Shown one piece after another: positions 30,001-33,000 of a DNA stretch of 64,000 nt. The stretch spans positions 374,051-438,050 of the forward strand of contig CBDBIB010000001.1 in the NCBI GenBank assembly GCA_965205945.1. Direction: 5' to 3'. Position numbers: made by a program. Origin of the DNA: Bdellovibrionales bacterium. GTDB taxonomy: Bacteria; Bdellovibrionota; Bdellovibrionia; Bdellovibrionales; UBA1609. Position 1 is the stretch's first letter. Every line of letters begins with the position of its first letter.

Positions 30001-33000
30001 TTTTTTAAAAAGAGTCATCTTTAATAATATTAAGGCTAATTCAAGCTGCCTTTTTATTAAACAAAGACCTTGAAAACGGTATGGCATTATCTTCAATTTC
30101 ACCCATAAAAGTTGGTGTGTTTACAGGCTCTAATCTACCCTTAAGCTTTCCATCAGACTGCTTGATTAATCTACTCATTCTAAACACATCCATATACTCA
30201 TAGTTTCCCTTAGTATCCATTCCTAAAACTTCAGTAATACCAGAAATTCTTCTACTGCCATCTGAAAACCTTGAGACTTGAACAATAAGGTCTACTGCTG
30301 CAGAAATTTGTTGTAATAATGCTGTTTCAGAAATTTTAACATTGCCACTCTGCGCCAGAGCCTGAAGGCGAGTTAAAGATTCAGATGCTGCATTAGCATG
30401 CACAGTTCCCATACAACCTTTATGCCCTGTACTCATAGCTTGAATCAATTCTAAAGCTTCTGGCCCGCGCACTTCTCCCACAATAATCCTATCTGGACGT
30501 AAACGAAGGCTTGAAACCACAAGATCTCTAATACTTACTTCAGTATCACCGCGCTCATTAGCCATTCTAGTTTCAAAAAACACAACATGCTCATACTCAA
30601 CTTTTAATTCTGTTGAATCTTCAATAACAATAATTCTCTCACCTGAAGGAATTCGGGAAGTTAAAAGACCTAATAAAGTTGTCTTACCTGAGCCTGTTCC
30701 TCCACTTACTAAAATATTTTTACCTAATCTCATAGCTGCATCTAAAAACTGTGCACCTTCAACAGTAATGGCACCTAATTGTACATATTTTTTAAATGTC
30801 ATATCTGACTTAAAAAATTTTCGAATAGCAACTGTTGTTCCTTTACGTGACATTGGTGGAAGTACTGCATGTATTCTTGAACCGTCAGGAAGTCGCGCAT
30901 CAAGCCTTGGCTCAATATCAGTAATTCTCCTACCAACCGATTGAGCAATAGCATTTATGGCAGCACGAAGGGCATCCTCATCTGGAAATTTTGCATCTGA
31001 AAGCACCATCTTACCACCACGTTCAATAAATATTTCATCTGAACCATTAATTAAAATTTCAGAAACCGTATCATCTTCTAAAAGAGAATGAATTGGTGCT
31101 AAATTATTTTTAATAGCAGCCTGAAAGACCCCTTCTTCTTCATTTTTTTTTTCATCCCTCATACTAAAGTTATCGGCATTTTATAGTTTTATGTTAAATC
31201 CTAATAGACCTAGGCCTTTATCTATATTATTTTAAACCCTTTGCTTAAAATAGAACGGTTAAATACAAAAACAGGGTTCTACGATTATAATGTCATAAGT
31301 AAAGCTAAAAAAAGAAATTTATTTAAAAACTCTTATAAACTTTCCCAGTAATCAATAGATTAAATACAGGTTACAAAAAACAATGGCCAAAGTCTTAGTC
31401 AAACTGATGTAACTTTAAAAGAGGCTTGATAAATATCTTTAAGTTCTTCTTCAATTTTTTTTAAACACAAGGTTATAAACGCTACAGGATCAACATTTAA
31501 GTCTTTAAGTCCAATTGCTCTTACTGGAGCCCCTTTAAAGTCTACATTCACACCAAAATGAATTAAGCTTGATAATGGGCTTACCGTTGCAATAGAAACA
31601 TTAAGTTTTTTACCATCACAATAAATATCATCACCTTTTCTCACAAAACTCCTATCTGTAAGCGACACTAAAACATCAATCACTATTTCAGCCATTATTC
31701 TTTGAACACAAATACCAAAAAAAATATCCTTATGAAAAAATTCACATAAAAAATGAATCATTTTTTTTGACTTTATAAAATCATTTTTTATACGCTCTTT
31801 TGCATCAACTAAATCAGTTGTTTTAACATCACAAGGCCCTATCCACGATAAGATTCCATCACCTTTTAATCCATGCTCATATAAAAACAATGACCTTAAT
31901 TGTGGCCCTGTATAAGTAAACTCTTTAGTTAAAAATTTAGTACTTATCATAATCCACTTTCTTTTCTTGCCTTTAAATACCTTTTACACGATTCACAGGC
32001 TCCACAAATCTCTTCATCATTTTTATAGCAGGGCCATAATTTTTGAAAATTCACATCAAGCTTTTTACCAAGTTTTACAATATCAACTTTGTTAAGATTT
32101 ACCGTCGGACTAACAACTCTAACACGAGCTCTTGTAGAAGACTCTAACGCTTTGTTAGTATCATCAATAAATTGCTTAGAGTTATCTAAAAATGTCTGAG
32201 CCTCTTCTAAATTAAAACCTAAAACAATATGATCAATTTTCTTAGCTTCAGCAATTGATGCTGCAGCATTGATAAAAAGACCATTTCTATTAGGAACCCA
32301 TACAGCTTTTGCTGTTTCTTTTAAAACCTCTATACTATTAATATCTACCAAAGTACCTTGTGGAATCAAATTCTCAACTTTATTTAAAGCTGAGCTAGAC
32401 ACTTCTCCTAAAAATTTTAAATCAATTTCTAAAAAGCCGGCCTCCACTAAACCAGCAAAGTACCTAGATGCTTTTCTTTCTTTTTCTAACGCTTTTTGGC
32501 CATAATTAAAAAACACAGCATCAACTGATTCGTATTCTTTCTCAGCCCATAAGAGTGACACTGTAGAGTCTAGTCCACCACTTAAACATACTAAAGCCTT
32601 CATTAAATTTCGCGCCCAAAATGCAATCCACTACTCACTTCAACTTCACTCATTAAAAGCTGTAGTGTTTCTATATTTCTAAAAAAATTAATATTCGGAT
32701 TCACATAAAAATTAAATTTATAGCTTATATAATTTTGAGATTCGATCATTAGGGCCACTTCATGATCTTTTTGTGGTGAAAACCAAAGCACATCAAAAGT
32801 TTTTCCTTTTTTATCAGACACTAAGAGCTTGTAATGTTTGTCTTTAAGTTTTCTAACCAAGACTATTTCAAGATCTGAAATCTTAAAGATAGGCTGTTCA
32901 AAATCAACTCCAAAAGGTTCTAAGTGCTTTAACCAATTTAAAAAACTCTGATTAAGCTCTCCTAAATAAACTTCACAATCATACTTTACCCCAAATGCAA

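Follow-up and report, generated by a model that had tools for sequence, protein, structure and literature searches.

DUF366, a protein family with a biotin/lipoate-ligase fold, as a putative partner of a variant QueC in preQ0 metabolism

The initial annotation of this DNA had placed DUF366 in 7-deazaguanine (preQ0) metabolism and linked it to QueC. This assignment is supported by adjacency of the two genes, by their joint loss, by a natural fusion of the two proteins, and by the existence of a QueC clade that is specific to DUF366. DUF366 is probably a needed partner of this clade (clade B below) and not an extra, and the completion of the queuosine precursor preQ0, the task of QueC, is probably performed by two proteins in many microbes. 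To the more specific proposal that the clade-B QueC and DUF366 together convert 7-carboxy-7-deazaguanine (CDG) via the amide ADG to the nitrile preQ0 we assign an even chance. The co-loss within families, the clade-B QueC with its altered motifs, five exceptional genomes with two QueCs, and the QueC-DUF366 fusion are new here.

The preQ0 pathway is regarded as fully described by FolE, QueD, QueE and QueC, and annotations of queuosine, archaeosine and 7-deazaguanine DNA systems rely on it. If our proposal is correct, a fifth conserved protein changes the picture of this pathway, and many genes annotated as queC may encode proteins that do not act alone. The ligase fold would also acquire a new type of function, and structure 2DDZ, which has been in the PDB without a function since 2007, would be accounted for.

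Gene row and family assignment

The window, i.e. the whole stretch of 64,000 nucleotides that was analysed, carries a minus-strand row of genes in the order queA-tgt-yajC-secD-secF-recJ-queC-DUF366, of which queC and DUF366 are the last two. The features are as follows.

31399..31950, minus strand, DUF366 (PF04017), 183 aa, a single biotin/lipoate-ligase-like domain; open reading frame and Pfam match, E 3.1e-50
31947..32603, minus strand, queC of clade B, 218 aa; open reading frame and Pfam QueC match, E 1.9e-51
32603..34354, minus strand, recJ; TIGR00644, 420.8 bits
34375-35358, minus strand, secF; named by place in the row and translation
35318-37030, minus strand, secD; named by place in the row and translation
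37089..37433, minus strand, yajC
37508..38644, minus strand, tgt, bacterial tRNA-guanine(34) transglycosylase; TIGR00430, 498 bits
38632..39624, minus strand, queA; Pfam E 3.9e-74, QueA models matched with both NCBIfam cut-offs missed

The 183-residue DUF366 protein and its head-to-tail arrangement with queC were recovered as first described: the start of DUF366 and the stop of queC share a 4-bp ATGA overlap (junction TTATGATAA). The recJ stop and the queC start overlap by 1 bp; recJ is probably a neighbour on the same transcript that stands outside the pathway. The match of DUF366 to PF04017 scored 170.7 bits (gathering cut-off 29.9) and placed residues 4-180 on positions 3-183 of the 184 in the model. 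None of the NCBIfam models searched matched DUF366, and PF03099 (BPL_LplA_LipB) was unmatched at E values up to 0.01, the DUF366 model alone being listed. The window QueC reached 163.6 bits with NCBIfam TIGR00364 (cut-off 150.3). A search of the whole window with Rfam at gathering scores gave zero matches and hence no preQ1 riboswitch. The absence of DUF366 from the literature was also reproduced: a whole-word search returned no paper naming DUF366, PF04017, COG2029 or IPR007162.

The genome encodes one QueC, which is of clade B, two tandem QueD proteins, QueF, Tgt, QueA, QueG and FolE2. A QueE-like radical SAM protein, located via its CxxxCxxC motif, scored 243 bits with TIGR04349, below the cut-off of 300. 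FolE type I and QueH were looked for in the genome and neither was found. Since the sole QueC is of clade B and occurs alongside QueF, Tgt, QueA and QueG, preQ0 must here come from the clade-B QueC. The earlier view that the canonical queuosine set is full and DUF366 therefore an extra is not supported in that form, because this only QueC is a variant without three canonical pocket residues; for the same reason DUF366 looks required. The QueC-DUF366 pair would feed QueF, Tgt, QueA and QueG, leading to queuosine in tRNA.

A variant QueC beside DUF366

Canonical QueC, as in E. coli and B. subtilis (3BL5, 2PG3), and clade-B QueC have the PP-loop, VPxRN, the Lys and the zinc cysteines in common. 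The window QueC keeps SGGLDS, VPNRN, K172 and the zinc motif C-x8-C-x2-C-x2-C (C192-Y193...C200-C203-C206). At the position of YxQxHxxE it reads YGQKALEKE, with Ala38 in place of His, and at YPDCR it reads F-L-D-N-S. The SGGxDS/VPxRN/Lys/Cys part of the canonical signature is present in this protein, whereas the His of YxQxHxxE and the YPDC part are missing. In PMC13329287, YxQxHxxE and YPDC(R) are given as part of the signature (cluster 1) of canonical QueC, which works alone. The same paper reports that the Y131A variant of E. coli QueC is inactive and Y131F partly active, and that in Cap9, a QueC homologue whose reaction ends at an amide, the motif is reduced to Y/FxQ(x)5E, without His.

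A tree of 72 QueC sequences was split with an SH-aLRT value of 100. One side, with 47 rows, contains 21 QueCs of Bdellovibrionota and 24 from metagenomes and L002, all adjacent to DUF366, together with the fusion and one viral copy. On the other side are 16 QueCs of genomes that lack DUF366. The DUF366-associated branch was named clade B, with motif counts on 46 rows, and the 16 rows form clade A. At the His position clade B has Ala (36), Ser (7) or Gly (2) and not a single His; the Tyr of YPDCR is replaced by Phe and the Cys by Asn in all 46 rows, and the Arg by Ser (36) or Thr (8). In clade A the His position is occupied by His (13) or Thr (3), and Tyr, Cys and Arg are found in all 16. Clade B differs from the canonical motifs of PMC13329287 by Ala/Ser/Gly for His and by FPDN(S/T) for YPDC(R), and is a clade of its own.

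Five genomes have a clade-B QueC without DUF366, and each of them has a second QueC of canonical type (YxQRH, YRDC); this check leaves out the further DUF366-less genomes G071, G347, G362, G365, G386 and G395, whose QueC scores are in the clade-B range. Eight viral QueCs that adjoin DUF366 retain the His, Cys and Arg, which indicates that DUF366 is not merely a patch for the lost residues.

Distribution, gene neighbourhoods and fusions

Among 401 Bdellovibrionota genomes DUF366 was found in 231 and QueC in 380; since the genomes are related, these counts and those of the neighbourhoods below are not independent. The counts of DUF366 and QueC are equal in families f1 (25/26), f2 (53/53), f8 (1/2), f11 (0/1), f16 (32/34), f28 (3/4) and f29 (5/7). 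Of the genomes listed, only three (G020, G060 and G189) have DUF366 but no QueC, and two of these three are 75-80% complete. Within families of the Bdellovibrionota DUF366 and QueC are kept and lost together. Phages and the methanogen genomes used as controls carry DUF366 as well.

The locus scans were done with a subset of 16 sequences (A2) because the first alignment was too diverse, and the loci are consequently biased to the motif KL[ST]VSIAT. The metagenome loci are the best 80 of 543, selected through KL[ST]VSIATxS. QueC had been named as the genomic neighbour of DUF366, and our own Bdellovibrionota, metagenome and viral samples agree in direction. In the Bdellovibrionota, QueC lies directly upstream of DUF366 on the same strand in 20/20 loci from 15 families. 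It is directly upstream in 28/65 of the metagenome loci with enough upstream flank (best 80 of 543) and adjoins DUF366 in 9/17 viral loci. The two proteins are also found fused: P0109 (438 aa), which occurs on two contigs in a single cluster, has QueC at residues 17-230 and DUF366 at 257-435, a domain order equal to the gene order. A search for longer fused DUF366 forms gave just one 384-aa protein, likely miscalled.

Other neighbours point beyond QueC. Within the same best 80 of 543 loci, QueE is directly downstream of DUF366 in 33/62, at least as often as QueC is upstream, and the 8 loci of one lineage have DUF366-QueE but no QueC next to it. A protein of about 213 aa upstream of DUF366-QueE in these 8 loci was considered as a divergent QueC and rejected, as it matched nothing in Pfam and lacks the motifs of QueC. 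No que gene was found within 4 kb of DUF366 in 15 of 50 metagenome loci with two flanks (best 80 of 543); neighbours in que-less loci include RluA-type pseudouridine synthases and LPG_synthase_TM proteins. Three loci (L029, L039 and L079) share the row Vut_1(YhhQ-type)-DUF366-DUF6884(DpdC-type)-NurA-HerA-TGT-like, with no QueC in 8 kb; the family identities were taken from PMC5372724 and PMC11888242. Here DUF366 is flanked by a preQ0 transporter on one side and a DpdC-type protein on the other, away from any QueC, an arrangement that hints at preQ0 or ADG as the putative ligand of DUF366 as much as at CDG, which, as such or as its adenylate, had been proposed before.

These rows, the QueE neighbours and the canonical type of the QueCs that adjoin viral DUF366 copies would suit a different function, in which DUF366 on its own binds or carries CDG, ADG or preQ0, hands over or buffers the base and serves QueE, QueC, DpdA/DpdC and transporters alike, without being a subunit of QueC or a catalyst. 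The missing Gly/Arg-rich ATP loop of the ligases (see below) fits with this as well. We regard such a carrier as rather unlikely, though it is the alternative that survives best. It leaves unexplained why His, Cys and Arg are lost in 46/46 of the adjoining cellular QueCs, why a clade-B QueC without DUF366 is seen only beside a second QueC of canonical type, and why the fusion is specifically to QueC. Furthermore, the invariant Lys, His and Asp at positions of catalytic type would suggest more than passive binding.

Predicted structure and conserved residues

An AlphaFold2 model of DUF366, based on 123 sequences, had a pLDDT of 97.6 and a pTM of 0.92. In a Foldseek search the best match was 2ddz (TM 0.96/0.93, 34% identity, rmsd 1.2 over 188 columns), followed, among the matches listed, solely by biotin and lipoate protein ligases or lipoyltransferases (E 2.4e-7 to 1.2e-5, TMq 0.46-0.67, probability 1.00), in accordance with the ligase fold claimed before. 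The ESM Atlas returned DUF366 clusters only, and a scan of the genome contigs with the single protein gave only 2 close relatives. By sequence, the A1 profile of DUF366 reached the Aquifex biotin protein ligase (BPL) 2eay with an E value of 0.0064. Comparison of DUF366 with the order's own BPLs by hhalign gave an E value of 2e-4 at a probability of just 46%, with only the C-terminal half aligned. A role as ammonia supplier was rejected, because Pfam and Foldseek showed no similarity to glutaminases or amidases.

Six residues had been described as invariant (residue numbers used here are one higher than in that description). In the alignment of 123 sequences this is true for K115 and H131, whereas H66 (120/123), E70 (120/123), D108 (118/123) and N135 (122/123) are nearly so; D49 and M64 are invariant too. 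K115 and H131 are also kept in 122/122 locus copies, including 19 viral ones. The N-terminus is unconserved.

The ligase signature, which had been left unchecked residue by residue, is retained in part. Two independent alignments equate D108, K115 and N135 with the Asp of the BPL PND motif, the conserved Lys and the Asn of GxN. The Gly/Arg-rich loop is absent: the patterns GRGRxGR (BPL), RRxxGGG (LplA) and RGGxxTxHGPGQ (LipB) matched 0/123 DUF366 sequences, whereas the loop in the BPL of this genome reads GRGRRGNTW. In the chain region of this loop DUF366 has an acidic loop, 'VDxED', at residues 48-52. The BPLs and lipoate protein ligases (2eay, 3efs, 2ej9, 2art, 2c8m) thus share with DUF366 the fold and the Asp/Lys/Asn residues, with a weak but real similarity in the C-terminal half. 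Unlike these ligases, DUF366 lacks the Gly/Arg-rich loop, a C-terminal cap domain and a match to PF03099. An acceptor protein was not evident in the neighbourhoods inspected.

The retained Asp-Lys-Asn of the adenylate site and the presence of K115 in every copy (123/123 and 122/122) raise the possibility that DUF366 is itself an enzyme, catalysing CDG to ADG, ADG to preQ0 or another step of the acyl-adenylate type on CDG, with the clade-B QueC doing the other half. The loss of the motif His in clade-B QueC, as in the amide-stopping Cap9, and the occurrence of DUF366 next to DpdC, which on DNA interconverts this nitrile and this amide, are compatible with such a division of labour. We nevertheless consider it improbable: the ligase-type ATP-binding loop occurs in 0/123 sequences, DUF366 has only 183 residues in one domain, and the clade-B QueC, which retains the PP-loop, VPxRN, the K165 equivalent and the zinc site, would by its sequence still be able to adenylate. 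It is very improbable that DUF366 is a pathway sensor or regulator (e.g. for end-product inhibition of QueC) or an operon passenger without a 7-deazaguanine role, as the 15/50 que-less metagenome loci (best 80 of 543) and a Clp_N-DUF366 fusion (P0043, one contig) might suggest, since hitch-hiking is hard to square with QueC co-loss inside seven families, with QueC adjacency across bacteria, phages and diverse metagenome loci, and with the QueC fusion and the DUF366-specific QueC clade.

Proposed mechanism and comparison with known systems

In the mechanism that we favour, DUF366 and the clade-B QueC would bind each other, and the DUF366 pocket (K115, H131, D108, N135, D49/D52) would hold a 7-deazaguanine substrate or intermediate. 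DUF366 may supply what the clade-B QueC has lost, most likely by helping the second step, from amide to nitrile, because the amide-stopping Cap9 lacks the same His. A sharper version has two forms of preQ0 synthase, a single QueC and a split form in which the clade-B QueC, deprived of the motif His like Cap9, makes or holds only ADG and DUF366 supplies either the chemistry that turns amide into nitrile or the missing part of an active site common to both. We think this version doubtful. If true, DUF366 would be devoted to the switch between nitrile and amide at C7 of 7-deazaguanines, which would explain its place by DpdC in DNA-modification islands and by QueC in phages.

A ligase of the DUF366 fold that depends on a second protein is LplA-LplB of Thermoplasma, in which formation of the adenylate requires a small partner with a gene of its own. 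In that pair the two proteins together make up the ligase, whereas DUF366 would be a ligase-fold accessory of a PP-loop enzyme. For the QueC family, PMC13329287 offers precedents of enzymes with an added domain or partner, namely Gat-QueC, QatC-QatB and Cap9-CD-NTase. Of these, Cap9 lacks the motif His, as does clade-B QueC. Gat-QueC carries a glutaminase and DUF366 is none; no GATase domain or gene was found in DUF366 or the window row, so the Gat-QueC type does not apply. In the Qat and CBASS systems the N-terminus of the partner is the acceptor, whereas that of DUF366 is unconserved and there is no sign of DUF366 as a modified substrate. An E. coli queC complementation assay is already in use (PMC13329287), and our proposal is directly testable with it.

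The Pyrococcus horikoshii protein PH0223, of structure 2DDZ, belongs to the same family as the DUF366 protein (phmmer E 5.1e-31, profile E 2.7e-59, TM 0.96). Its PDB deposition gives the function as unknown, and the literature searched gives PH0223 no role. PH0223 does appear in a protein table of a P. horikoshii two-hybrid study (PMC1414084), which we read as a list of self-interacting proteins.

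Gene context of DUF366

The DUF366 gene closes a tightly packed row of genes on the reverse strand:

38632-39624, -, queA
37508-38644, -, tgt
37089-37433, -, yajC
35318-37030, -, secD
34375-35358, -, secF
32603-34354, -, recJ
31947-32603, -, queC
31399-31950, -, DUF366 gene (183 aa), last of the row

The order queA-tgt-yajC-secD-secF is E. coli-like, and recJ-queC-DUF366 is added to the row here (31399-39624, -). One base is shared by the stop of recJ and the start of queC, and the DUF366 start overlaps the queC stop by 4 bp in ATGA. Because of these overlapping junctions the three queuosine genes and DUF366 may be on one transcript with the sec and recJ genes. 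The head-to-tail position of DUF366 and queC reported in the initial annotation is real and at the coordinates given there, since the 183-aa protein matched Pfam DUF366 over its entire length (E 3.1e-50); no NCBIfam model matched. Past the DUF366 gene lies a 236-bp AT-rich gap and then a type II/IV secretion ATPase gene. A 314-aa ORF between this gene and the enolase gene (29039-29983, -) matched no Pfam family at E 0.01.

Fold and conserved residues

Among 1.84 billion representative proteins, 523 clusters of DUF366 relatives were found at E ≤0.001, nearly all of them stand-alone proteins of ca. 185 aa. One representative, P0043 (347 aa, from a single metagenome contig of a high-GC organism), has two Clp_N repeats fused to a full DUF366 domain. 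The sole solved sequence relative was 2DDZ, PH0223 of Pyrococcus horikoshii (E 5.1e-31), deposited as a hypothetical protein. In a 123-sequence alignment D49, M64, K115 and H131 were invariant (numbers are one higher than in the initial annotation) and Y13, G15, G38, D52, H66, E70, Q83, R84, R104, G106, D108, S119, S127, N135, P142, E169 and K179 were kept in at least 90% of the sequences. The AlphaFold2 model built with this alignment (pLDDT 97.6, pTM 0.92) was closest to 2ddz in a Foldseek search of the PDB (TM 0.96), followed solely by biotin and lipoate protein ligases and lipoyltransferases (TMq 0.46-0.67, E 2.4e-7 to 1.2e-5).

The ligase signature motifs, left open in the initial annotation, were compared residue by residue. 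A search with the DUF366 profile reached the biotin ligase 2eay of Aquifex on sequence alone (E 0.0064), with RkGdDlyvkdkKLsvS...liHlgvN opposite KWPNDVYFQEKKVSGV...IVGIGIN, and a profile-profile alignment by hhalign with 30 biotin ligases of the source order gave the same register (E 2e-4, probability 46%, 68 columns). In this alignment, which is limited to the C-terminal half, D108 corresponds to the Asp of PND, K115 to the conserved Lys and N135 to the Asn of GxN. A GRGRxGR, RRxxGGG or LipB-type loop was found in none of the 123 DUF366 sequences, whereas the biotin ligase of the source genome itself carries GRGRRGNTW. The DUF366 loop between the two long strands instead holds a conserved acidic run, V-D49-x-E-D52, according to the alignment and the predicted structure. 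Since Asp, Lys and Asn align and the Gly/Arg-type loops are absent, DUF366 is a ligase relative that has kept half of the adenylate pocket and rebuilt the other half. It shares the fold with biotin and lipoate ligases but lacks their loop motif and does not match their Pfam model, and we do not class it as a ligase. Members of this fold class can work as split enzymes, as in the two-protein lipoate ligase LplA-LplB, and can make amides, as in AsnA. The only BPL_LplA_LipB protein of the source genome is the 237-aa biotin ligase, encoded outside the window on the same strand as queF, ca. 560 bp downstream of that gene (contig C1, 325104-326749).

Co-inheritance with QueC

Of 401 evenly sampled Bdellovibrionota genomes, 231 had DUF366 and 380 had QueC (E ≤1e-10). 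Within several families the two genes were inherited and lost together, with identical counts for both in f1 (25/26), f2 (53/53), f8 (1/2), f11 (0/1), f16 (32/34), f28 (3/4) and f29 (5/7). The eight genomes missing both (G016, G310, G331, G004, G191, G139, G094 and G242) include several that are 97-100% complete. Among the QueC-less genomes, of which 20 of 21 were listed, DUF366 was present only in G020, G060 and G189 (80%, 75% and 95% complete). Other families have QueC and no DUF366: f20 (99/100 vs 0/100), f14 (19/20 vs 0/20), f21 (14/14 vs 0/14) and f25 (3/3 vs 0/3). As the genomes are related, these counts describe a pattern and should not be read as a statistic.

The pairing with QueC claimed in the initial annotation was recovered in loci gathered independently of its neighbour table. 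In 20 Bdellovibrionota genomes, spread over 15 families and chosen from DUF366 matches blind to neighbours, QueC was always directly upstream on the same strand, preceded by QueD in 10 and FolE2 in 3. Metagenome loci were the best 80 of 543 confirmed matches, reached via the motif KL[ST]VSIATxS and thus biased to one part of the family. Among these, 65 had an upstream flank of 400 bp or more, and in 28 of them QueC was the next gene upstream; a que gene was adjacent in 34 of the 50 with both flanks, and queD-queC-DUF366-queE was the most frequent order. For 19 viral contigs, 17 of them with both flanks, QueC adjoined DUF366 in 9/17 and some que gene lay within 4 kb in 16/17. A natural fusion, P0109 (438 aa, on two contigs), preserves the gene order, with QueC at 17-230 and DUF366 at 257-435.

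A separate QueC clade

QueC scored lower against its Pfam model in genomes with DUF366 (E ~1e-36 to 1e-57) than in those without (~1e-59 to 1e-78); family f23 holds both states. We aligned 16 QueCs from DUF366-less genomes with 21 from Bdellovibrionota adjoining DUF366, 25 from metagenome DUF366 loci (including L002) and 9 from viral ones. A quick, arbitrarily rooted IQ-TREE tree of 72 rows, one of them the QueC part of the fusion, gave a split with SH-aLRT 100 on both sides. Clade B (47 rows) comprises all 21 Bdellovibrionota sequences, 24 DUF366-adjacent metagenome/L002 sequences, the fusion and one viral copy. The opposite side (25 rows) holds all 16 QueCs of DUF366-less genomes (clade A), eight viral copies and that of L049, a locus where QueC is not immediately beside DUF366.

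The canonical QueC signature consists of SGGxDS, YxQxHxxE, VPxRN, YPDC, a conserved Lys and C(x)8CxxCxxC; in E. coli Y35A, R99A, Y131A and Y189A each abolish queuosine, and Y131F retains part of the activity (Libby et al. 2026, PMC13329287). Of these features clade B retains the PP-loop, the VPNRN motif, the conserved Lys and the zinc-binding cysteines together with the Tyr, and has lost three pocket residues, His, Cys and Arg.

QueC residues at signature positions (clade A, DUF366-less genomes; viral, QueCs beside DUF366)
Position; clade B (46 rows); clade A (16); viral (8)
His of YxQxHxxE; A36, S7, G2, never His; H13, T3; H8
Tyr of YPDC; F46; Y16; F4, Y4
Cys of YPDC; N46; C16; C8
Arg after YPDC; S36, T8; R16; R8

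Five f23 genomes without DUF366 have QueC scores in the clade-B range (G201, G218, G308, G272 and G314; 92-95% complete) and could have contradicted the tie between clade B and DUF366. Each had two QueC matches, one a clade-B QueC (YGQRA..., FPDNS) with no DUF366 beside it and the other a paralogue with YxQRH, YRDCS and GRN instead of VPxRN (L140-L149). In this sample, which excludes G071, G347, G362, G365, G386 and G395, clade-B QueC without DUF366 thus occurred solely alongside a His- and Cys-bearing QueC.

Proposed role of DUF366

The source genome has FolE2, two QueD, a QueE-like radical SAM gene, QueF, Tgt, QueA and QueG, and a single QueC, of clade B. QueF requires preQ0, so this QueC must contribute to its synthesis. 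The initial annotation had regarded the queuosine set as canonical and DUF366 as an extra. The set is complete, yet its sole QueC is non-canonical, and this reverses the second point: the obvious candidate for the factor that lets clade-B QueC work is DUF366. The interpretation in the initial annotation is partly supported, with adjacency to QueC, co-inheritance, the fusion and the separate QueC clade all favoring a role in 7-deazaguanine metabolism. The two QueD paralogues (170 and 158 aa; E 1.4e-20 and 4.3e-17) are in tandem outside the window (C1, 309019-309980).

We propose that DUF366 and clade-B QueC would bind each other, with DUF366 holding a 7-deazaguanine substrate or intermediate. 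The carboxylate, amide or adenylate part would fit its Lys, His and Arg, and the aminopyrimidinone face its acidic loop, and DUF366 would supply the function that clade-B QueC lost with its His, Cys and Arg. QueC converts 7-carboxy-7-deazaguanine via the amide (ADG) to the nitrile preQ0. Our preferred guess for the lost function, a speculation that we consider rather unlikely to be correct, is the second step, from amide to nitrile, because the QueC homologue Cap9, whose first motif is only Y/FxQ(x)5E and lacks the same His, stops at the amide bond (PMC13329287). Gat-QueC, QatC-QatB and Cap9 are precedents for QueC-family enzymes with partners (PMC13329287). Clade-B QueC with DUF366 probably represents a new variant of a known step of the pathway, one that takes two proteins, and the proposal is open to a simple complementation experiment.

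In the literature outside subscription journals we found no paper naming the DUF366 family and nothing relevant on QueC or preQ0 combined with ligases; as far as this literature shows, the variant is unpublished. PF04017, represented by 2DDZ, has no function on record, and PH0223 appears only in a table of proteins from a two-hybrid study (PMC1414084). DUF366 is not mentioned in the text of PMC13329287, nor PF04017 in one supplementary file of 21,642 characters, which may not cover all of the paper's neighbourhood table S2, nor the family in a 2026 preprint on 7-deazapurine clusters.

A serious rival is that DUF366 is a free carrier of the 7-deazaguanine base. QueE adjoins DUF366 as often as QueC does: of the 62 metagenome loci with downstream flank (from the best 80 of 543), 33 have it directly downstream. 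In one lineage DUF366-QueE follows an unrelated conserved protein of ~213 aa at the usual QueC place, with no Pfam match and no QueC motifs in the eight loci:

L048:754-1419
L055:1557-2198
L057:2950-3591
L061:359-1015
L062:1-663
L065:7356-7997
L080:233-880
L084:7350-7988

No que gene lay within 4 kb in 15 of the 50 two-flank metagenome loci of the same set; neighbours in que-less loci include RluA-type pseudouridine synthases and LPG_synthase_TM proteins. Three loci (L029:372-7190, L039:778-7522 and L079:284-6716) have the order Vut_1 - DUF366 - DUF6884 - NurA - HerA - weak TGT-like and lack a QueC over 8 kb. The preQ0 transporter YhhQ belongs to Vut_1 (PMC5372724), and DUF6884 is the DpdC domain (PMC11888242). 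This row looks like a salvage-fed 7-deazaguanine DNA-modification island, with NurA/HerA proteins instead of the usual Dpd helicases, and is in keeping with a more general role of DUF366 in handling preQ0 or ADG. The canonical type of the eight viral QueCs beside DUF366 also favors a free carrier.

FolE type I, QueF-like genes and phosphoribosyltransferases also occur near viral DUF366. Two phosphoribosyltransferase genes (L085:6479-6946 and L088:6702-7181), amid viral preQ0 genes beside QueC, DUF366 and FolE2, could convert the free base to a nucleotide. On another viral contig a 488-aa QueC directly downstream of DUF366 (L089:8476-9942) has an N-terminal extension of ~270 aa with no Pfam match, for which a diverged glutaminase is one possibility.
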